Below, in pieces: positions 27,669 through 55,061 of a stretch of DNA of 64,000 nucleotides. The stretch is from Candidatus Saccharimonadota bacterium. GTDB taxonomy: Bacteria > Patescibacteriota > Saccharimonadia > UBA4664. The DNA is taken from assembly GCA_019352195.1 (NCBI GenBank), contig JACAFG010000002.1, positions 19,120 to 83,119 on the forward strand, read 5' to 3'. The stretch's first letter is position 1; every line of letters begins with the position of its first letter. The position numbers and the translations under genes are program-made. Under the pieces are notes generated by a model, which did no database searches, had not been told where the DNA came from, and worked only from the letters and a program-made list of their open reading frames with translations.

Positions 27669-28299
27669 GTGGGAAATGACGCATACAAATGGGTCCGTAA
27701 GAATGATGAGGAAATTATTCTCCGTTTTGCTGATCCAAGGATAATAAGGCCAGTTGAAAATCCAATTACTTTTTTATGGCTGGCTCGCCCGGCGCCGGTA
27801 AGACTGAATGGGCACGTTCATTGATCGTCAACCTCGCAAATGACAAAGAAGAACCGACAGAGTTTGTTCACATAGACCCTGACGAAATAAGAAAGCTATT
27901 TGATGGCTATAATGGCACAAATGTTTCGGAATTTACTCGAGCAACTAGTACTGCGGTAGGACGTATTCTTGATCGGACAAATCGTCTTGGACAAAACGTC
28001 ATTGTCGACGGGACCTTATCCAGGTATGATGCCGTGGCGAAAGACGTTGATTCTTATATAGGAAACATGGTCGGAGCACAGTAATTTTCTTTGTATACCA
28101 AAAGCCGGAATTAGCTTGGTATTTCACGAAGGCAAGGGCAGCTGACCCTGAAGACGGGCGCGTTGTTGATAAGCTGACATCGATTGCCGCATACGTGTAG
28201 TCTATCCAAAATGCCAACGCCTTAAAGCGTAAATACGGATCACATATACAACTTCATATCATTGAAAAAGATGCGTTGAATAGGGTAAAAAAGGTTTAA
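27669..28299 (+). pseudogene. zeta-toxin-like / AAA_33-type P-loop kinase gene, degraded by two frameshifts and one in-frame TAG
   Basis: GTG at 27669 after an aggaga RBS gives MGNDAYKWVRKNDEEIILRFADPRIIRPVENPITF. A T6 run at 27770..27775 shifts frame into MAGSPGAGKTEWARSLIV... (Walker A), continuing to 28084. Protein-like continuation lies in a third frame from 28087 (FFVYQKPELAWYFTKARAADPEDGRVVDKLTSIAAYV). An in-frame TAG at 28198 is followed by SIQNANALKRKYGSHIQLHIIEKDALNRVKKV, ending at 28299. Confidence 0.5.
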
Positions 28300-30978: not shown

Positions 30979-33670
30979 AGACGGTTTGGCTACCAACGCG
31001 GTTTATGGGTTTACCACGATCTTTCTTAAAATGCTGCAAGATCTCAAGCCAAAGTACGTGATTGTAACGTGGGATAAGAGCGCAAAAACGTTTCGAAAAG
31101 ACATGTATGAGGGCTACAAAGCCACGCGTAAGCCGATGCCAGATGATTTACGAGAGCAGATCCCGCTGCTTAAGGAACTGGTTGAGGGGCTTAAACTGCC
31201 CTTTGTGGAGCTGGAAAACTTTGAAGCCGATGACATCATCGGAACGCTCGCGTATGAGGCTGAGAAGCGGGGCGATCTGGAGACAATCATTGTAACTGGC
31301 GACCTCGATGAGCTACAGCTCGTTGATGAGAACACGGTGGTGCGGATTGCCAAAACAGCGAGCGAGGCCATGAGCTACGACATTGCGGCCGTGAAGGATC
31401 GTTATAAGGTGACGCCGAAGCAGTTTATTGACGTCAAAGCTCTCAAAGGAGATGCCAGTGACAATATTCCGGGTGTGCCTGGAATTGGTGAAAAGGGCGC
31501 AGTCGATTTAATCGTTAAATACGGCTCGCTGGATGAAGTTTATCAGCACGTTGATGAGCAATCGAAAGGAGTGGCAAAGAAGCTCGCCGATGGCAAAGAA
31601 TTAGCTTACTTGAGCCAAAAACTCTCGACGATTGTGCTTGACGCGCCGGTAAAGTTAGATCTAGCGGCCGCCGAGATTGGCCAGTATGACAATGAGCATG
31701 TGGCCAAACTGTTTCACCGACTCGATTTTCGTAGTTTGCTGCCAAAATTGCCGCCGCAACTTGATCCGGCAACCGTGGAAGCGGCAGTTCAAAATCCGGC
31801 TGAGGGACCGCTAACGCTGTTTGGCGGTGATGCCCCCGTTAAGAGTCGTAAACATCTGGAAACGGCTAAATATGAGGCAATTACGACGACTGAACGGCTC
31901 GATTGGCTGGTCAAGCAATTAACCAACCTAGAGGTGTTCGCGTTTGATAGTGAAACGACCGGCGTTGATACCGAGACAGCCGAGCTGGTTGGATTATCAT
32001 TCGCCTGGAAGGAGACTGAGGCGTATTACGTCCCGGTAGCCCACAACGCGGGCGTGCAGCTTGGTTGCGAAGAGGTGATTGCTGCCTTAAAACCCGTATT
32101 TGAGGACGACAAAATTGGCAAAGTTGGCCACAATATCAAATTTGATATTAAGATGGTGGCTAAATACGGTGTTGACGTTGTTAATGTGGCGTTTGACACG
32201 ATGGTGGCCGCCTTCTTGCTGAACTCGCTGGGCCGATCGCAGTCGTTGGATGGTCTGGCCTATGACGAATTTGGTATTGAGATGATTCCGATTAGCGAAA
32301 TGATTGGATCCGGTAAAACCCAGACGACCTTTGACGCGGTTCTCATTGAGGACGCGACGACATACGCGGCGGAGGATGCCGACATCACGTGGCGATTATA
32401 TGAGGTCTTGAGTAAGCGCCTGTATTCTAAGGAGGCTCCCAATGACTATGGCTGGACGCTTGAGCGCCTAGCGCGAGAGATTGAATGGCCGGTAATTACG
32501 GTACTAGCCGATATGGAAAGAGCGGGTATCGAGCTAGATAGTGCAATGCTTGAGCGTTTTGGAAAGCGTCTGCGTGAACGTCTCAATGAGCTCAAAACGC
32601 AGATTTATGATGCTGCGGGTGAAGAGTTTAACTTGGGATCGCCAGCCCAGATGGCGCAAATATTGTATGGCCGGCTGGGATTGTCGACGGTGGGGCTGAA
32701 AAAAGGCAAAACGGGCTTTTCAACCGCGGCGGGCGAACTCGAAAAGCTTCGGGACGCCCACCCGATCGTGAATCTGATAATGGAAAACCGTGAGCTCGAT
32801 AAGTTGATGAGTACCTATGTGGAGGCGCTACCAGGTTTGGTGGCGGCCGATGGACGGATTCATACCAGCTTTAATCAGACTATCGCTCAAACGGGACGGC
32901 TCAGCTCAACGAACCCCAATTTGCAAAACATTCCGGTACGCACTCAACTTGGCCGAGAAATTCGCCAGGCGTTTGTGGCGCCGAAAGGCCGCGTGCTGGT
33001 GAGCGCCGATTACTCCCAGATTGAGCTCCGCGTAGCGGCGGCGCTGGCCAAAGATGAAGCTATGATCAAAACTTTTACCGATGGTATCGATTTGCACGCA
33101 CAAACGGCAGCCGAACTGTACCAGGTAGATTTGGAAGACGTCACCAAGGAGCAGCGATCAGCCAGTAAGACTATAAACTTTGGCGTGCTTTACGGTATGA
33201 GCGCGCATGGGCTGAGTGTAGCCACGGGGATGGACCGGGATCAGGCGCAGGCGTTCATTGATCGTTACTTTGAGGTACGGCCTAAGCTGGCGGCTTACAT
33301 TGAGGCTACCAAAAAATTTGCTTACGACAATCAATACACGGCAACAGTCTTTGGCCGTCGGCGGCCGTGTCCTGAAATTCGCAGCAGTGTGTATATGCTC
33401 AGGCAAGGCGCTGAACGTATGGCCGTAAACGTGCCTATCCAAGGTACGGCGGCTGATATCTATAAGCTAGCAATGATTCACTTAGCCGCCAAATTGGAAC
33501 CAGCCGATAAACTATTGCTGCAAATTCATGACGAACTGATTGTGGAGACCGATGAAGCGCGGGCCAATGATGTGGCCGAGCTCATGCGTATGGTGATGGA
33601 AAATGCGATTGATATTGGTGTGCCACTAGCGGTAGATACGGCAATTGGGACCAACTGGGGCGAGCTTTGA
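30890..33670 (+). CDS. polA: DNA polymerase I (5'-3' exonuclease, 3'-5' exonuclease and polymerase domains)
   Basis: LVLVDGSAVFYRGYYA, FAFDSETTG, KVGHNIKFD, motif A DYSQIELR, motif B and motif C (QIHDELIVE) all present. 926 aa. Confidence 0.95.
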   Translation: MAQAKERLVLVDGSAVFYRGYYAIPHLSNKDGLATNAVYGFTTIFLKMLQDLKPKYVIVTWDKSAKTFRKDMYEGYKATRKPMPDDLREQIPLLKELVEGLKLPFVELENFEADDIIGTLAYEAEKRGDLETIIVTGDLDELQLVDENTVVRIAKTASEAMSYDIAAVKDRYKVTPKQFIDVKALKGDASDNIPGVPGIGEKGAVDLIVKYGSLDEVYQHVDEQSKGVAKKLADGKELAYLSQKLSTIVLDAPVKLDLAAAEIGQYDNEHVAKLFHRLDFRSLLPKLPPQLDPATVEAAVQNPAEGPLTLFGGDAPVKSRKHLETAKYEAITTTERLDWLVKQLTNLEVFAFDSETTGVDTETAELVGLSFAWKETEAYYVPVAHNAGVQLGCEEVIAALKPVFEDDKIGKVGHNIKFDIKMVAKYGVDVVNVAFDTMVAAFLLNSLGRSQSLDGLAYDEFGIEMIPISEMIGSGKTQTTFDAVLIEDATTYAAEDADITWRLYEVLSKRLYSKEAPNDYGWTLERLAREIEWPVITVLADMERAGIELDSAMLERFGKRLRERLNELKTQIYDAAGEEFNLGSPAQMAQILYGRLGLSTVGLKKGKTGFSTAAGELEKLRDAHPIVNLIMENRELDKLMSTYVEALPGLVAADGRIHTSFNQTIAQTGRLSSTNPNLQNIPVRTQLGREIRQAFVAPKGRVLVSADYSQIELRVAAALAKDEAMIKTFTDGIDLHAQTAAELYQVDLEDVTKEQRSASKTINFGVLYGMSAHGLSVATGMDRDQAQAFIDRYFEVRPKLAAYIEATKKFAYDNQYTATVFGRRRPCPEIRSSVYMLRQGAERMAVNVPIQGTAADIYKLAMIHLAAKLEPADKLLLQIHDELIVETDEARANDVAELMRMVMENAIDIGVPLAVDTAIGTNWGEL

Positions 33671-34203
33671 TCGGCGTAGCGTTGGCCGATGGCGACTTGA
33701 AGCTGGTTGCTCCAAATGTTGAACGCGATGCGCTGCTGGGTGTGGGCTGGGTGAATGGCGAAGTAGGGCACGAAACCATGCGGCTCATGGGGAATAACCC
33801 AAAATCGATTACGGATACAACGCTCAAACAGCAGCAAAAACTGATCCAAAGCTTTATTGATGATCAACATGCGATTTATTGGATGCTTGAGTTAAATCAG
33901 AGGGTTGTCGGCGCAATTTGGATTCAACTAAACGATGAAGAGTATTTGCCTGGTCCGTCTGTTTCGATAATGATTGGCGATGTAATTGCGCGCGGACACG
34001 GTATTGGCAAACGCGCGATGATATTGGTACTTGGCTGGGCACGTCTGCACGTGACTAATCTAAAGCAGCCATTACGGGTTAGGGCACTGGCTGACAATGC
34101 CGCCAGTAATGCTTTGATTAAGAGTTTTAGTGCATTGCTCGATGGCAAACAGTATACCGATAGTGATGGTTTGGTTTGGCAGAATTATCAACTCAAGGGC
34201 TAA
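33667..34203 (+). CDS. GNAT-family N-acetyltransferase
   Basis: VVGAIWIQL...IGDVIARGHGIGKRAM acetyl-CoA-binding motif. TTGA overlap with polA. Confidence 0.6.
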   Translation: MIGVALADGDLKLVAPNVERDALLGVGWVNGEVGHETMRLMGNNPKSITDTTLKQQQKLIQSFIDDQHAIYWMLELNQRVVGAIWIQLNDEEYLPGPSVSIMIGDVIARGHGIGKRAMILVLGWARLHVTNLKQPLRVRALADNAASNALIKSFSALLDGKQYTDSDGLVWQNYQLKG

Positions 34204-35126
34204 TTGAGGGGCTTTTCGGATCGAATCATAATCGTGAGGCCGGTGTAGGTATTGGAAGCGAGGCCTGCGATTGTCGTTGATTCTTGCGCGGGTAGCAGCT
34301 CGACTGAGATGGTAGTTGGGCCTTTGTAAAAGCTAAATCCGGAAATGTACGCTGGCTTATATTGGGCGTTGGTAATGCCTTCGTAGGGCGAAGCGTTGGC
34401 GGAGTTGTAGCCCAGTGGTGCCAACTGGCTACTGATATCTGAATAAACGGCGGTAGCAGAAACTGATGGGCACGAATAGGTGATTTCGCGCCAATATGCC
34501 ACCGTATCAACGCCTTCGGAGTTATCGGTTTGGCTAGTAACCGTGCAATTCGCTGGTGCGTGCAAACTGGCAGCGGCAGCGAGCACCTTGGCTTTATAAG
34601 GTGCAATCGACTTGGTAACTCCTGATGAAAACGAGCCGAGAACGAAAATAGCTAATAGCGCGCTCAATATTCCAGCCGCACCGATGAGGGCAATGATGAT
34701 AAGGCCAATGGATTTCAGCTTGCTCTTGGGCTGTTCGATCGGTTTTTGAGGCATAGCTGACGGACTAGTCGGCTGGTCTGGCTGCTCGGCTGGCCGCGGG
34801 GCTGGTGCAGGCTCAATGGTAACGGCTTGGGTGGGTGGCATTGCCTCCGGCTGTTGAGCGCGGACAACGGGAGTGGCTTGGTCTGTTTGAGGCGCAGCTG
34901 CCAATGGATTGACGGATATTGGTGTTGCTACCTGTTCGTGCTCGGCGACGGGCGCAGGATTGGTTTGCGAATCTCTCGGCGCTACTTCAGTTGTGGAGGT
35001 CGGAATGGGTTCGGGCGCACGGTGGACCGAGCTTGAGGCTCCAGGAGTTAGGGGATACGACGCATGCTGCGGCGTGATCATTGGAACTGGATTACCGGAT
35101 TCATCGAAGTCATCTACTCGTGGCAT
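34200..35126 (-). CDS. single-pass membrane protein with a proline-rich cytoplasmic N-terminus and a Cys-containing extracytoplasmic domain (paralog A)
   Basis: MPRVDDFDESGNPVPM... Pro/Ala/Gln-rich 130 aa, TM (IGLIIIALIGAAGILSALLAIFVLG), C-terminal domain with ...CTVTSQ...YSCPS. Confidence 0.55.
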   Translation of the reverse strand: MPRVDDFDESGNPVPMITPQHASYPLTPGASSSVHRAPEPIPTSTTEVAPRDSQTNPAPVAEHEQVATPISVNPLAAAPQTDQATPVVRAQQPEAMPPTQAVTIEPAPAPRPAEQPDQPTSPSAMPQKPIEQPKSKLKSIGLIIIALIGAAGILSALLAIFVLGSFSSGVTKSIAPYKAKVLAAAASLHAPANCTVTSQTDNSEGVDTVAYWREITYSCPSVSATAVYSDISSQLAPLGYNSANASPYEGITNAQYKPAYISGFSFYKGPTTISVELLPAQESTTIAGLASNTYTGLTIMIRSEKPLN

Positions 35127-35136
35127 GGTTTTCTCG

Positions 35137-35799
35137 CTAGTTTACCGATACGGTTAGTCTGTAATGAGTAAAGCGGCGGGCTTGGGCCGTTGCCTTATCG
35201 GGTGCGTAATACGTTTTTCCGGGGGCGTCTTCGAGCAAGTACGTTAAATTGGTGAAAGAATGGTCCCGATAGTCAATTTGGTTCATATAGCCTTCGGCCC
35301 CAGAATTAAGGGTTACGCTCGTAGGCTGAGGGGCAGATTCTTGAGCGGCTTGGTACGGGGTTGGGACAAGTGAGGTGGCGATGGCAGCGAGGTAATTATC
35401 GGCTGTGGCGGGCGAACAGGTGTACTCGATAACCGACATTGCTTCAACGGTATCGATGCTGGCACTGCGCGAATTAAGCTGTGAGTCTTGCGTACAGCCC
35501 GGGAGGGTTTGAATGCCGGCGACGGCTGCTTTGAGGGCGTTGGCGTTTTTTAGGCTTGAGGCTTGAACACCAATGATAAGCGCTGCCGAAATACCTGCGA
35601 TGACTACGACTGGTAGGCCAATGAGGCACAATACAATGATAAACGGGGTACTCAGACCTCGTTTTTTGGATGTTTTAGCCCCAGGGGACGCATATTGAGG
35701 TGACACGGGTGGGGTAGTTGATGCTCCTATTGAGGCCGAAGCTGGAGATGTTACAGGTAGCGGCTTTCCGCTCGCATCGAGCACATCAGCGCGTGGCAT
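35137..35799 (-). CDS. single-pass membrane protein, paralog B of 34200..35126
   Basis: Start moved to M20 (MPRADVLDASGKPLPV, which parallels MPRVDDFDESGNPVPM). TM (FIIVLCLIGLPVVVIAGISAALIIG). C-terminal domain with ...GCTQDSQ...YTCSP. Confidence 0.55.
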   Translation of the reverse strand: MPRADVLDASGKPLPVTSPASASIGASTTPPVSPQYASPGAKTSKKRGLSTPFIIVLCLIGLPVVVIAGISAALIIGVQASSLKNANALKAAVAGIQTLPGCTQDSQLNSRSASIDTVEAMSVIEYTCSPATADNYLAAIATSLVPTPYQAAQESAPQPTSVTLNSGAEGYMNQIDYRDHSFTNLTYLLEDAPGKTYYAPDKATAQARRFTHYRLTVSVN

Positions 35800-35800
35800 G

Positions 35801-36145
35801 TTAGCCGGCGCAAACTGTCGAGCGGATAAACATGTAGGCGAGCAGTCCTTGGCCAATCAGTAGGGCAAAGATAGCCAAGTTGTAGGCGGAAATACCGACG
35901 TCCCAGCCTTTGCGTAAGCGTAACGCGCCGAGTAAGAACACCAGATACGCGGCCGCCGCGATGCCGAGCTCGAGCATGGCTACTTGGAGGCTGTCAGTTG
36001 CCTTAAGCGGCGGCAGGCCGCAAGGACGGTAGCCACTGACGGTGAGGCCGCCTTGCATGAGGGCTAAAAAGGCCACGAGTCCAGCGCTTGCAACCGTAAG
36101 AAAACGGTTAAAGGGAACCGGAGCTAAATTTCTAGTACGTGCCAT
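35801..36145 (-). CDS. small polytopic membrane protein (3 predicted TM)
   Basis: 114 aa. Stop abuts the start of paralog B. Confidence 0.45.
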   Translation of the reverse strand: MARTRNLAPVPFNRFLTVASAGLVAFLALMQGGLTVSGYRPCGLPPLKATDSLQVAMLELGIAAAAYLVFLLGALRLRKGWDVGISAYNLAIFALLIGQGLLAYMFIRSTVCAG

Positions 36146-36187
36146 AATATCTTGATTATACCAGCAAAATGCTTAGGCGAAAGAGGG

Positions 36188-36484
36188 TTATTCGCTGATT
36201 TCGACGCCGCGCCAGAAAGCCACGTAGCCAGCAAAATCTTGGCCAACTTTTTCGGCTGCGCCTTCTTTGGGGTGTTCGTAGGAAAAAGCGGCGTCTTTGA
36301 GCTCCTGCCCTTCGACCATCAGGGAGTAGTAGGTACAGACACCTTTCCAGGGGCAGGTGTAGGGCGTGTCGGACGGTACAAAAAACTCGCGGTGAACACT
36401 TGCCGGCGGAAAGTACTCGTTGCCTTCGATAGTGATAGTCTCGGGTGCTTCGGCAATTACTTCGCCGTTCCATACTGCTTTCAT
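36188..36484 (-). CDS. DUF427-domain protein
   Basis: MKAVWNGEVIAEA...IEGNEYFPPASV...CPWKGVCTYYSL...VAFW pattern of PF04248. Confidence 0.55.
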   Translation of the reverse strand: MKAVWNGEVIAEAPETITIEGNEYFPPASVHREFFVPSDTPYTCPWKGVCTYYSLMVEGQELKDAAFSYEHPKEGAAEKVGQDFAGYVAFWRGVEISE

Positions 36485-36578
36485 GATATGCCTTTTTAGT
36501 TGGTTCTATCTTACCTGAGAACAGATAATAATTCAGCCCGAGCAACGAATTGCTCGGGCTGAATGGACTGCGGACTGA

Positions 36579-37496
36579 CTAGAGCTGGTGGCGGTGGACT
36601 GCACGTGTCCAGAGTTCCTGGAGGTGCTGGTACGCATCCCAGGTGGGATTTATACCATATCTTACCGCCACAACGCCCCGCGGAAGACTAGGATCTAAGG
36701 CGGCGACTTGCGCGAACCACTGCTGAACTTGGCTAACGGACATCGGTTCGTGAATCGACAATACGGGTCGTCTGCTAACCGCGTGCCGGGCTATAACCTC
36801 GGCATCCATTTGTACGACCCGTCGGGCGGCCAGCGCCTGACCCATCTCCGAGAGCGGTCGATGTTTCGCCGCCCTTTTGTGCCGCTTGGTGCTACGGGAG
36901 TAGTGCATCCGAGCCGATCTTGGAGACCGGTGATGAGTGTCATTGGTCTCTTGCTGGCCAGTCATGATGAGACGGACCATGAAGTCGTAGATGGCCGTGA
37001 CGAGTATGAGGAGCATTGATCTCATCGCGTCCGACCGGTCAAGCCACATGTTTGATGCACGGGCCATGGCCGAATTGTCTTCATCCACGCGCGCGTGGCG
37101 TCCAGGTGCGGGCGGCCAAACGAGATGCTCGGGTTGGGGCAGACCTGGGAACGGACCGTCGAAGTAGTTGTGCTCGACGATAGCCGTCCGGATCAGCCTA
37201 GCCCGTCTCATCTGGCGGGGACTCGGCACATGGTCGAAGATTTGCCCTGCTCGGAAGATGGTGGTCCTGAAGATCACCCAACCTAGTGCTATCAGATCCA
37301 TGATGATGAAGATGGGGCTGAACCGGAACAGCGGAATAGCCTCGCCAACACCGCCAAAGATGTAGAATCCGGACAGAACTACGACCAGAATGGCGAAATT
37401 GCGCCGGGCTTCGTGGTAGTGGGTCAAGATGCTCTTGGCCCACAAGGCAGGGTAGTCGGCTTCGGTCGGGAGTTCATCCCGGTAGGAGATTTTCAT
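36579..37496 (-). CDS. hypothetical membrane protein (2 N-terminal TM helices plus a soluble C-terminal domain)
   Basis: Start taken at M16 (MKISYRDEL...). Hydrophobic segments ILVVVLSGFYIFGGV and IFIIMDLIALGWVIF. Confidence 0.45.
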   Translation of the reverse strand: MKISYRDELPTEADYPALWAKSILTHYHEARRNFAILVVVLSGFYIFGGVGEAIPLFRFSPIFIIMDLIALGWVIFRTTIFRAGQIFDHVPSPRQMRRARLIRTAIVEHNYFDGPFPGLPQPEHLVWPPAPGRHARVDEDNSAMARASNMWLDRSDAMRSMLLILVTAIYDFMVRLIMTGQQETNDTHHRSPRSARMHYSRSTKRHKRAAKHRPLSEMGQALAARRVVQMDAEVIARHAVSRRPVLSIHEPMSVSQVQQWFAQVAALDPSLPRGVVAVRYGINPTWDAYQHLQELWTRAVHRHQL

Positions 37497-37628
37497 ATTG
37501 GTCCTTTGGTCGCAGGTAGGTGCAGGAGAGCAGTAAAGCATTTATATCATGTATTGAGTAATAATACAATGTCTGGCTGCCGAACATGTCCTGTTTGAGC
37601 TATAATTACCAGATAGAAGGATGGCGTT

Positions 37629-41004: not shown

Positions 41005-42168
41005 GTGGACCTAACTCCCAAACAACAGACGTCTGAGGCGATTCGCCAAGCCGAAACGATTCTTATCACTACTGGACAGCGCCCAAATGTTGACCAGGTA
41101 GCCGCGACGTTGTCGATGGCCGCTATTTTGCGTAAATTCGGCAAAAAGGTAAGTGTTATTATCTCCGATCAGCTGCCGGGCCCGGCTCAGTGGCTTGATA
41201 CCAAAGGTGTAGATTCGCGCCTCAGCGGCTTGCGAGATTTTATCCTAAAGGTAAATACTACTAAGGTTGAAGTCGATAGCCTCCGTTATGAGCCCGATGG
41301 CGATCATCTCAAAATTTACATAACGCCGTTTGCGGGTGGTTTTGCACCGAGCGACGTGACGTTTGATTATGGCGATTTCCATTACGATTTGGCGATTATT
41401 TTGGGTGTGCCGCAGCGCAACCGAATTGATAAGGTCTATACCGAGCACGCCGCTATTTTTGCGAGCATTCCGGTCGTTAACATCGATTTTCATCGTATCA
41501 ACGAGAGCTATGGAGCCATCAACTTAATTGAGCCAACGGCTTCGAGTATTTCGGAAATGCTGGTTGCAACGAGCGAAAGCTTACAAACTGGCCTGATTGA
41601 TGCTGACATTGCTACCATGATGCTTGGCGGAATTATGGCCGCGACTGATCGTTTTACGGCGCCCCACACGACGAGCAAAAGTCTAACAGTGGCGGCTCAG
41701 ATGATGGCCGCTGGTGCCGATCAGCAGGCAGTGGTTCGTGGTCTGTACGGCGGCCGTGCCGACGGCCCGCGGAGCAATGATTCTAATCGTCCAACGCGAC
41801 CCGACGGCGCGAGTGGTCCGTTTCCGGCCAAAACTCCGGCCGCAGCTCCCTCGGCTCCTGCTGCCCAAAGTCAGCCAGTAGTAGCCCCAGCACCGGCTCC
41901 AGCTTCAGTCCCGGCCCAAGCGCCTACCGAAGCTAAACCAAGCGACGAAGTACGTTTGCCACAGGATTATCAGCCGAGCGACGAATCGGCGCCGGTAGAA
42001 CCGTTGATTGAGCCCGATCATATTGAGCTGATGAGCGCGGCAATGGCCCACGACGAATCGGCGGACGTCGAGCTGCCAACCGCCGCTCCGGTACTGCCAA
42101 TGGCAGATTTCTCGGCGGCCGCTGAAATCTTGCGTAACCGAATTGAGCCCGAGCCAACTCAGGCCTAA
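41005..42168 (+). CDS. DHH/DHHA1-fold (NrnA-like) protein with degenerate catalytic motifs and a Pro/Ala-rich C-terminal tail
   Basis: Collinear with NrnA, but DHH motifs are altered (ILITTGQRPNVDQVAATLS for HxxPDgDalGS, IDFH for DHH, LGGI for GGGH). C-terminal roughly 130 aa low-complexity PAAAPSAPAAQ... Confidence 0.4.
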   Translation: MDLTPKQQTSEAIRQAETILITTGQRPNVDQVAATLSMAAILRKFGKKVSVIISDQLPGPAQWLDTKGVDSRLSGLRDFILKVNTTKVEVDSLRYEPDGDHLKIYITPFAGGFAPSDVTFDYGDFHYDLAIILGVPQRNRIDKVYTEHAAIFASIPVVNIDFHRINESYGAINLIEPTASSISEMLVATSESLQTGLIDADIATMMLGGIMAATDRFTAPHTTSKSLTVAAQMMAAGADQQAVVRGLYGGRADGPRSNDSNRPTRPDGASGPFPAKTPAAAPSAPAAQSQPVVAPAPAPASVPAQAPTEAKPSDEVRLPQDYQPSDESAPVEPLIEPDHIELMSAAMAHDESADVELPTAAPVLPMADFSAAAEILRNRIEPEPTQA

Positions 42169-54098: not shown

Positions 54099-55061
54099 AT
54101 GTCTGATGAAGTTAAATTAGTTGGTAAGGTGGGACCGCAACTTAAAGCGAGGCGGCAGGCGCTGCGGTTGAGCTTGGCTCAAGTGGAACTTGATACCAAG
54201 ATTCGCGGTAAATTTCTCACAGCGCTCGAGAGCGGCAATTACGATAAGCTGCCCCACGACATATACTCGCGCGGATTTGTACAACAGTATGCGGGTTACT
54301 TAGGCCTAAATGGCTCTGAAGTAGCCACTGCCTATGTGGCTGAACGTGGTGGCCTCGAAGCGGGGGATACCAAACGCCCCACCCTGGAGCGTCAACGCAG
54401 ACTCGTCTTTACGGGGCCAATTTTGGCGGCCTTTGCGGCCATTGTGGTGGTTAGTGCGATTGCATCGTATTTGGTGTATCAATTTAGTGCCTTGGCAGCC
54501 CCGCCTCATTTGGTGGTTACGAGCCCGGCTGCCGACACCACGGTTACCGGATCGGTCATTGAGGTGGTAGGGCATACTACGCCTGGCGCCGACATAACCA
54601 TCAATAATTCGCCCATTTTGAGTGATACCGACGGCAGCTTTAGTGAAAAAGTGGCTTTAGGGGACGGGCTCAATACTATTCGGGTGAGTTCGAAGAGCAA
54701 GTTGGGCAAAAGCAGTACGGTAGTACGCAATGTTTTGGCGCATTTGCCTGAGGTTCAGGGAGCGACGGCGAGTGTACCGACGGCGCCGTTTAACGGCGTC
54801 GCGGCATCAATCAGTGTCAGCGCCACAACCTCCGTGGTCGTCGCGGTAGACGGCAAAGAGGCGTTTCGACAGACCGTTTTGCCGGGTTGGAGTCAGCTGT
54901 TCACGGGTGCCCAAAGCGTGGTTATAACTACTGGTAACGCTGGTGCGACCAACGTTGTTATCACCAACAGCGTGGTAGCGAACAAGAAATTTACTCCGCT
55001 TGGTGGGCAAGGAGAGATCCGACGCAATCAAGAGTTCGATAGTACTACGACTTTTCAATAA
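54099..55061 (+). CDS. RodZ-like cytoskeleton protein (XRE-type HTH, TM, C-terminal DUF4115-like domain)
   Basis: LGPQLKARRQALRLSLAQVELDTKIRGKFLTALESGNYDKLPHDIYSRGFVQQYAGYLGL is a RodZ N-terminal signature. TM ILAAFAAIVVVSAIASYLVY. Located next to ftsK. Confidence 0.55.
   Translation: MSDEVKLVGKVGPQLKARRQALRLSLAQVELDTKIRGKFLTALESGNYDKLPHDIYSRGFVQQYAGYLGLNGSEVATAYVAERGGLEAGDTKRPTLERQRRLVFTGPILAAFAAIVVVSAIASYLVYQFSALAAPPHLVVTSPAADTTVTGSVIEVVGHTTPGADITINNSPILSDTDGSFSEKVALGDGLNTIRVSSKSKLGKSSTVVRNVLAHLPEVQGATASVPTAPFNGVAASISVSATTSVVVAVDGKEAFRQTVLPGWSQLFTGAQSVVITTGNAGATNVVITNSVVANKKFTPLGGQGEIRRNQEFDSTTTFQ

Follow-up and report, generated by a model that had tools for sequence, protein, structure and literature searches.

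The Mog1p/PsbP-like fold is found in a set of membrane-tethered periplasmic or secreted proteins, including DcrB, LpqN, LppA, MTC28, the N-terminal domain of PA1624, and DUF4853. LpqN, LppA, MTC28 and DUF4853 carry signal peptides that are cleaved off, as lipoproteins or secreted proteins, and none is known to have a cytoplasmic tail. DcrB (DUF1795; PDB 6e8a), an inner-membrane lipoprotein of Salmonella and E. coli, carries its N-terminal lipid anchor on a lipobox cysteine and is not known to have a conserved cysteine pair; PA1624 of P. aeruginosa (PDB 6td9) is soluble and periplasmic, consists of two domains, the C-terminal one OmpA-like, and has neither a transmembrane (TM) anchor nor a cytoplasmic tail. 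The PA1624 N-terminal domain and DcrB have been placed in the Mog1p/PsbP family (PMC7716261). In functional terms, DcrB takes part in membrane homeostasis together with YciB, a small membrane protein (PMC9487459), MmpL3 and MmpL11 are interaction partners of LpqN (PMC7458404), and the function of PA1624 is itself undescribed. Here we consider two adjacent genes, A and B, on contig JACAFG010000002.1 of a Candidatus Saccharimonadota bacterium, of which a stretch of 64,000 nucleotides (the window) was analysed. Their products are predicted to carry an outer domain of the same fold; compared with the envelope relatives, they appear to use a TM helix instead of lipid, and to have in addition a cytoplasmic tail with a conserved N-terminal peptide.

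The best reading of the available evidence is that A and B represent a lineage-specific, fast-evolving, accessory family of small bitopic envelope proteins in Saccharibacteria; by analogy with the structural relatives, they most likely serve the envelope as binding proteins or scaffolds anchored in the membrane. Taken as a whole, the explanation that they are old tandem paralogues, and fast-evolving bitopic envelope proteins with a Mog1p/PsbP-like binding or scaffold ectodomain, is one that we hold to be probably correct, if by a modest measure. The family is previously unannotated, in that all its members are hypothetical proteins without a Pfam or NCBIfam model. On present evidence it amounts to an ordinary family of envelope proteins specific to its lineage, rather than to a system of a new kind; the sequence family is best read as new and the predicted fold as known.

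A first-pass annotation of the window had described two minus-strand genes of the same architecture, encoding Pro-rich single-pass membrane proteins, with a gene for a small 3-TM protein (C) directly upstream. The coordinates and architecture given there were correct apart from small corrections, and are as follows.

34200..35126, minus strand: gene A (HJC99_01620), open reading frame (ORF) of 308 aa, family member with a long Pro-rich tail
35137..35799, minus strand: gene B (HJC99_01625), 220 aa from the ATG, family member
35801..36145, minus strand: gene C (HJC99_01630), 114 aa, three hydrophobic segments

All three are hypothetical proteins at NCBI, recorded there under a metagenome-assembled Candidatus Saccharibacteria genome (GCA_017884045.1, contig JABBYD010000045.1), the product of A being a 100% match to its entry. 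The mechanical ORF of B extends to a TTG at 35856; the start is taken to be the ATG giving 220 aa because the TTG extension would overlap C, because the NCBI call is likewise 220 aa, and because the orthologue in a related locus (L009) starts MPRVD just past the C stop. The C stop and the B ATG are separated by 1 nt (TAA-c-ATG), just as the first-pass annotation had it, and B and A by 10 nt. The domains of the two proteins, with the evidence for each, are listed below.

35082..35126, minus strand: A residues 1-15, N-terminal motif MPRVDDFDESGNPVP (six-frame scan, family comparison)
34713..35081, minus strand: A residues 16-138, Pro/Ala/Thr/Gln-rich tail, predicted to be disordered, probably cytoplasmic (composition, pLDDT)
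34614..34712, minus strand: A residues 139-171, single TM helix, putative signal anchor (Kyte-Doolittle, AlphaFold, flank charges)
34203..34613, minus strand: A residues 172-308, putative extracytoplasmic domain, predicted Mog1p/PsbP-like fold, Cys194 and Cys219
35755..35799, minus strand: B residues 1-15, N-terminal motif MPRADVLDASGKPLP (BLASTP, six-frame scan, family comparison)
35644..35754, minus strand: B residues 16-52, Pro/Ser/Ala-rich tail (composition)
35566..35643, minus strand: B residues 53-78, single TM helix (hydrophobicity, flank charges)
35140..35565, minus strand: B residues 79-220, putative extracytoplasmic domain homologous to that of A, Cys102 and Cys128 (BLASTP, family alignment)

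Comparison of the two sequences indicates that A and B are old tandem paralogues, distant from each other. BLASTP aligns them at 27% identity over a 131-aa stretch that takes in the TM helix and the C-terminal domain (E 2e-6), and the N-termini with 12 identities in 23 positions. The motif residues common to A and B are encoded differently (Ser by TCC versus AGC, Arg by CGA versus CGC), and no DNA repeats or tandem repeats were found flanking, within, or linking the two genes. Therefore the duplication is old; it is as protein that the motif has been conserved, and nothing points to a recent duplication or to a mobile element.

Eight members of the family were recognised, i.e. A, B, one gene in the related locus L003 (L003_1), two in L009 (L009_1 and L009_2), and the proteins P0013, P0014 and P0015. 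Word-indexed searches with A and B returned only the queries themselves (for A, within a limit of 8000 candidates that was probably filled by Pro-rich words). An exhaustive HMMER search of 1.84 billion proteins, with a profile made from the A and B sequences (TM and C-terminal regions), identified P0013, P0014 and P0015 at E 3e-4 to 8e-4; the E 0.001 cut-off of this two-sequence-profile search corresponds to about 36 bits, which is above the 19-34 bits of the true L003 and L009 members. The latter are taken as homologues because, among 1025 ORFs, they were the only extra matches to the same profile (34 and 24 bits for the L009 genes, 19 bits for the L003 gene), and because of the outcome of an hhalign comparison (A1 versus A6; 93.7% probability, E 2e-7). 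Scans of genome contigs with the A+B and C alignments, and of metagenome contigs with the C and L003/L009 alignments, gave no match, both collections apparently being without this lineage; a literature search on proline-rich membrane proteins of Saccharibacteria found nothing relevant.

The members are only 20-50% identical to one another, the best cross-genome pairs being at 35-50%, and an alignment of six of them nowhere shows 7-10 conserved columns in a row. The A/B family diverges far faster than its neighbours: from one genome to another, the identity of C is 69-87%, and that of the adjoining DUF427 protein 80-89%.

The conservation that does exist in the C-terminal domain is centred on cysteine and tyrosine residues. 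The first-pass annotation had proposed an extracytoplasmic domain of about 150 aa with two conserved cysteines; the domain comprises 137 aa in A and 142 aa in B, and the pair (C194/C219 in A, C102/C128 in B) is invariant in all eight members, with a spacing of 24-27 residues. In A numbering, the residues invariant across the eight are C194, Y217, C219 and Y240. An AlphaFold model from the single sequence had a pLDDT of 57 overall, most of the C-terminal domain reaching about 65-80; with a five-sequence alignment (A, B, P0013, P0014 and P0015) the pLDDT was 78.5 and the pTM 0.73. The order of elements, alpha-beta-beta-alpha-beta-beta-beta-beta, is alike in the two models, and the model contains a six-stranded sheet. 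By our reading of the strand register, the two cysteines lie in a hairpin, one where beta-1 begins and the other close to where beta-2 ends, and it may be that they form an extracytoplasmic disulfide across this first beta-hairpin.

Structure comparison of the model identified the central antiparallel sheet and flanking helices of a Mog1p/PsbP-like alpha/beta sandwich, with the following scores.

PA1624: 11.1
DUF4853 (Actinomyces odontolyticus): 9.2
DcrB: 8.4
PA0094: 7.8
LppA: 7.7
SciW: 7.2
LpqN: 7.0
MTC28: 6.6
PsbP: 5.7-5.9

The C-terminal domain is thus predicted to be Mog1p/PsbP-like in the sense of structural similarity only, and not of membership of a named sequence family. The identity of A/B to DcrB is 8%, with no profile-level sequence match, and that to the PA1624 N-terminal domain is also 8%; LpqN (6e5d), LppA (2v7s), MTC28 (4pws) and DUF4853 (4mjg) are from other phyla and have no detectable sequence similarity to A/B. 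DcrB further differs in its lipid anchor, the A/B domain following a TM helix that itself follows a cytoplasmic tail. The structural neighbours are mostly periplasmic or secreted proteins. Bacterial envelope proteins with this fold are held at the membrane and serve in binding or as adaptors, without catalysis. By analogy with them, the outer domain would be exposed at the cell surface and would bind, or act as a scaffold, without being an enzyme, possibly contacting an envelope component or an external partner that changes quickly; a partner of this type would explain both the rapid divergence of the family and the variation in its copy number.

Several observations weigh against this interpretation. 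Foldseek against the PDB returned nothing at E 0.001 or better, the top match being the PilO core (5uvr; E 0.083, probability 0.85). Pfam, with its sequence profiles of DUF1795, Lpp-LpqN, PsbP and DUF4853, gave no match, either to A and B (E up to 1) or to any of the eight members (E up to 5); A and B have no NCBIfam match, scores against NCBIfam, PHROGs and PADLOC being insignificant, and the family profile, when run against PDB sequences, gave only TM-helix noise and no relevant chain. The fold comes from a predicted structure that is based on a very shallow alignment (five sequences), and the Mog1p/PsbP fold is functionally heterogeneous, such that the fold alone does not fix a mechanism. 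Codon statistics give the tails weak coding potential, codon-usage scoring not being decisive in this regard. Relaxed constraint, in place of a changing partner, could also account for the rapid divergence.

The Foldseek result bears on the possibility that A and B are a PilN/PilO-like (or GspL/M-like) connector pair, in which N-terminal peptides dock on a cytoplasmic machine and the ectodomains heterodimerise, so coupling an envelope structure to the cytoplasm. The architecture fits, A and B being tandem paralogues that each have a short conserved N-terminal peptide, a TM helix, and then a helix and an alpha/beta domain. PilN docks onto PilM by its N-terminus, so the proposal gives the N-terminal peptide a precedent, and it is the most interesting of the alternatives. 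By contrast, the structural scores for PilN/PilO are half those of the Mog1p/PsbP group, and the model, with its six-stranded sheet, may differ from PilO, the ferredoxin-like ectodomain of which consists of two alpha-beta-beta repeats. Neither PilN nor PilO was matched in Pfam even at E up to 5, and the A/B motif is MPRxD, not the INLLP of PilN. All genes within 10 kb on either side of the pair are annotated, and the larger ORFs of the window were scanned; no pilM, pilB or pilC was found among these larger ORFs or in the related loci, and the neighbours of the pair are housekeeping genes (PolA, MutM, HolA and DUF427). The copy number varies among relatives, and the 0 or 1 copy seen in them at the locus would be odd for an obligate heterodimer. 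The connector pair is, overall, an unlikely explanation.

With respect to topology, A and B each have one strongly hydrophobic segment; that of A has a Kyte-Doolittle peak of 2.81 and coincides with an AlphaFold helix at residues 137-166. Summed over the eight members, the 15 residues that precede the TM helix contain 29 Lys and Arg, and the 15 that follow it contain 15. An N-in/C-out arrangement, as the first-pass annotation had assumed, is favoured because of these flank charges, the conserved cysteine pair, the acidic 138-aa tail of A, which has no signal peptide, and the nature of the structural neighbours. The TM helix would then act as an uncleaved signal anchor, and a type II (N-in/C-out) protein with an extracytoplasmic disulfide is the most economical reading of the sequences.

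A lipoprotein assignment, with the first conserved cysteine as the lipidated residue, was considered and rejected, the cysteine being ~23-30 residues past the TM helix and so too distant. Its context is ...AP[AG][GAN]C, which is not a lipobox ([LVI][ASTVI][GAS]C following a signal-peptide core), and it comes after a helix that packs on the domain with high confidence (pLDDT about 92 in the five-sequence model).

The N-terminal peptide shared by A and B, MPRxDxxDxSGxPxP, is a real, family-specific feature. When all six frames of the window were scanned for [MVL]PR.D..D.SG.P.P, the full motif turned up in two places, the starts of A and B, and nowhere else. No other family member has the complete 15-mer; a reduced core, M-[PT]-[RL]-x-D-[DEQV], is present in six of the eight members, the remainder of the tail not being conserved. 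The six N-termini are as follows.

A: MPRVDD
B: MPRADV
L009_1: MPRVDE
L009_2: MTRRDQFD
L003_1: (V)TRDDQFD
P0013: MPLVDE

Besides these, the core was found in just one spurious antisense ORF among start-codon ORFs of >=60 codons in the window and the fetched loci. The conserved peptide may be a short cytoplasmic contact point for a partner. A stronger version of this proposal, that M-[PT]-R-x-D is a true docking motif tying a rapidly diversifying surface domain to a conserved partner in the cytoplasm or membrane, possibly C, and hence that the family is a new, Saccharibacteria-specific class of transmembrane connector, is fairly unlikely; were it correct, the surface domain might contact the host cell or phages in this episymbiotic lineage.

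The tail preceding the TM helix is 138 aa in A and 52 aa in B, so that the Pro-rich character described in the first-pass annotation stands, the length range of 70-130 aa given there being slightly off. Pro accounts for 22% of the first 134 residues of A (motif included), which have a net charge of -8, and the first 46 residues of B (motif included) are 17% Pro and 17% Ser. AlphaFold assigns a pLDDT of <50 to most of residues 17-127 of A, i.e. predicts disorder. The A tail cannot be aligned with other members, in which the length ranges down to 12 aa, P0014 and P0015 beginning only 12-13 residues ahead of the TM helix. The tails are taken to be translated because the frame is open, the gene spacing is compact and the N-terminal motif is conserved.

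Two other observations concern the tails. At L009:2092-2688 the gene caller chose an internal ATG, giving 163 aa; the open frame, of 198 aa, begins MPRVDEPTTPAAQP 2 nt past the C stop. It may be that N-terminal motifs and Pro-rich tails of this family are systematically lost in automatic annotation. The only other weak tblastn match to the A tail in the window (E 8e-4), reflecting composition and not homology, is to a Pro-rich low-complexity stretch at about 41750-42100 in the gene for a DHH-family (NrnA-like) protein (41005-42168, plus strand).

The properties of the tails argue strongly against an anti-sigma function. The first-pass annotation had noted a resemblance to anti-sigma factors or signalling membrane proteins, in which a sigma factor or regulator would be bound by the tail until the ectodomain senses a signal. 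Membrane-bound anti-sigma factors (ZAS/RsrA-like, RskA, RsgI) share with A/B only the single-pass N-in/C-out layout; they have a helical sigma-binding domain, whereas the A/B tails are Pro-rich and predicted to be disordered. No anti-sigma domain was found in Pfam or NCBIfam, the tails have no cysteine, such that the HxxxCxxC zinc motif of ZAS is impossible, the tail can be as short as 12 or as long as 138 aa, depending on the family member, and the motif is missing from two of the eight. The absence of an adjacent partner sigma factor, already remarked on in the first-pass annotation, extends to any ECF sigma within +/-10 kb, among the larger window ORFs that were scanned, and in the related loci; the sole sigma factor found is the housekeeping RpoD, in a dnaG-rpoD operon about 7 kb away. 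In relatives, too, A/B-type genes have been lost while no neighbouring regulator has gone with them. We conclude that A and B are not anti-sigma factors, that interpretation being already largely refuted and retaining only a very slight probability.

The locus has a conserved backbone on related metagenome contigs, which were reached through homologues of C at 69-87% identity, TruB-DHH-S20-methyltransferase-HolA-MutM-DUF427-C-PolA, in which the slot between C and the convergent polA contains 0, 1 or 2 family members. In the window the slot contains B, A and a GNAT gene, in L003 one 180-aa gene, and in L009 two genes; no family member is present in the slot of L004/5, L006, L010/11, L012-14 or L016. 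Thus three of eight distinct C loci have a following family member and five do not. P0013, P0014 and P0015 come from unrelated contexts, on contigs without a C gene. From this slot occupancy, and these three members, C is considered a conserved core gene and A/B accessory, and co-occurrence with the 3-TM gene, raised in the first-pass annotation, turns out not to be obligatory.

The wider region is a housekeeping one, containing FemAB, Mur ligase, Cmk, GroEL, PGI, DnaG, RpoD, PurF, PolA and MutM, and also HolA, S20, TruB, PNPase, RNase J, FtsK, a RodZ-like protein and RecA. Accessory, fast-evolving cargo in a fixed housekeeping backbone is the profile expected of surface proteins under changing selection, and the combination of copy-number variation and divergence suggests a changing partner or else weak constraint. 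Saccharibacteria are ultra-small episymbionts, the surface proteins of which are mostly uncharacterised and whose contact with the host is poorly understood; Actinobacteria are the usual hosts of the cultured Saccharibacteria. The A/B family thus provides concrete candidates for studies on the envelope or on host contact.

The same pattern, i.e. a copy number of 0, 1 or 2 in a fixed backbone with rapid divergence, together with the predicted envelope location, would also be in accord with an array of envelope immunity or exclusion proteins acting against toxins or phages, much as periplasmic immunity proteins do in polymorphic toxin systems. Neither in the window nor in any related locus, however, do genes of toxins, phages or mobile elements adjoin the pair, there was no PADLOC or PHROG match, a scan of viral contigs found no family member, and the conserved cytoplasmic N-terminal motif would have no obvious role. 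An immunity array is accordingly regarded as distinctly unlikely.

Weak constraint in its extreme form would imply that A and B are fast-decaying accessory genes with little or no function, the tails perhaps being untranslated and the true starts lying at internal Met residues near the TM helix. The weak codon-usage scores of the tails, the absence of the genes from most relatives, and the starts of P0014 and P0015 just ahead of the TM helix can all be understood in this way. Against it, the frames are open over 138 and 52 codons, the motif has persisted through synonymous codon changes and is seen again in L009, L003 and P0013, and the invariant Cys and Tyr residues, along with a confidently foldable domain, are retained at 20-30% identity. 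Untranslated tails would, moreover, leave about 380 nt of non-coding DNA in a compact region where genes are spaced by 1 nt and 10 nt. Decay is, like the immunity proposal, an improbable explanation, and functional, membrane-anchored envelope proteins with a binding or scaffold ectodomain remain the preferred reading.

C is likely the first gene of a C-B-A transcription unit, as judged by the spacing and by a putative, conserved extended -10 promoter ahead of it, from which the three genes would be co-transcribed.

36155..36163, minus strand: TGGTATAAT, extended -10 box, 9 nt upstream of the C ATG, likely C-B-A promoter (read from the sequence)

The operon is proposed because of the 1-nt and 10-nt gaps and this box. 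A TATAAT box is located exactly 9 nt before the C ATG in seven of eight related loci (the window, L003, L005, L006, L009, L012 and L016), with an upstream TG in most; at this distance the mRNA would therefore be leaderless or near-leaderless.

C itself contains invariant GYRPC and C-terminal Cys motifs, and has no family assignment. With DUF427 (PF04248) it makes up a strictly conserved gene pair (35801-36484, minus strand, and L003-L016), which is bordered by variable slots on both sides. The second of these slots, between MutM and DUF427, is filled in the window by an orphan gene for a membrane protein of 305/320 aa (36579-37541, minus strand) with a very basic segment, HHRSPRSARMHYSRSTKRHKRAAKHRP, that had no Pfam, NCBIfam, PHROG or PADLOC match; in relatives it is filled by a 147-aa protein, a 114-aa membrane protein, a DUF2795 protein, or nothing. 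A perfect hairpin with a 15-bp stem (36531-36564) follows the orphan gene and separates it from the C-B-A unit. On the other side, the gene for the 178-aa GNAT acetyltransferase (33667-34203, plus strand) overlaps the polA stop by 4 nt with its start, and the stop of the convergent gene A by 4 nt with its own stop; it is absent from the related loci, where polA faces the slot directly.

Elsewhere in the window, a 102-aa ORF between rpoD and purF (27776-28084, plus strand) matches only the N-terminal half of the zeta-toxin/AAA_33 kinase model (positions 21-116 of 199), and may be a truncated toxin remnant. The RodZ-like protein (54099-55061, plus strand), also bitopic, has an unusual combination of domains, i.e. 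HTH_25 and RodZ_C with an inserted Glucodextran_B-like domain (PF09136, E 1.6e-10).

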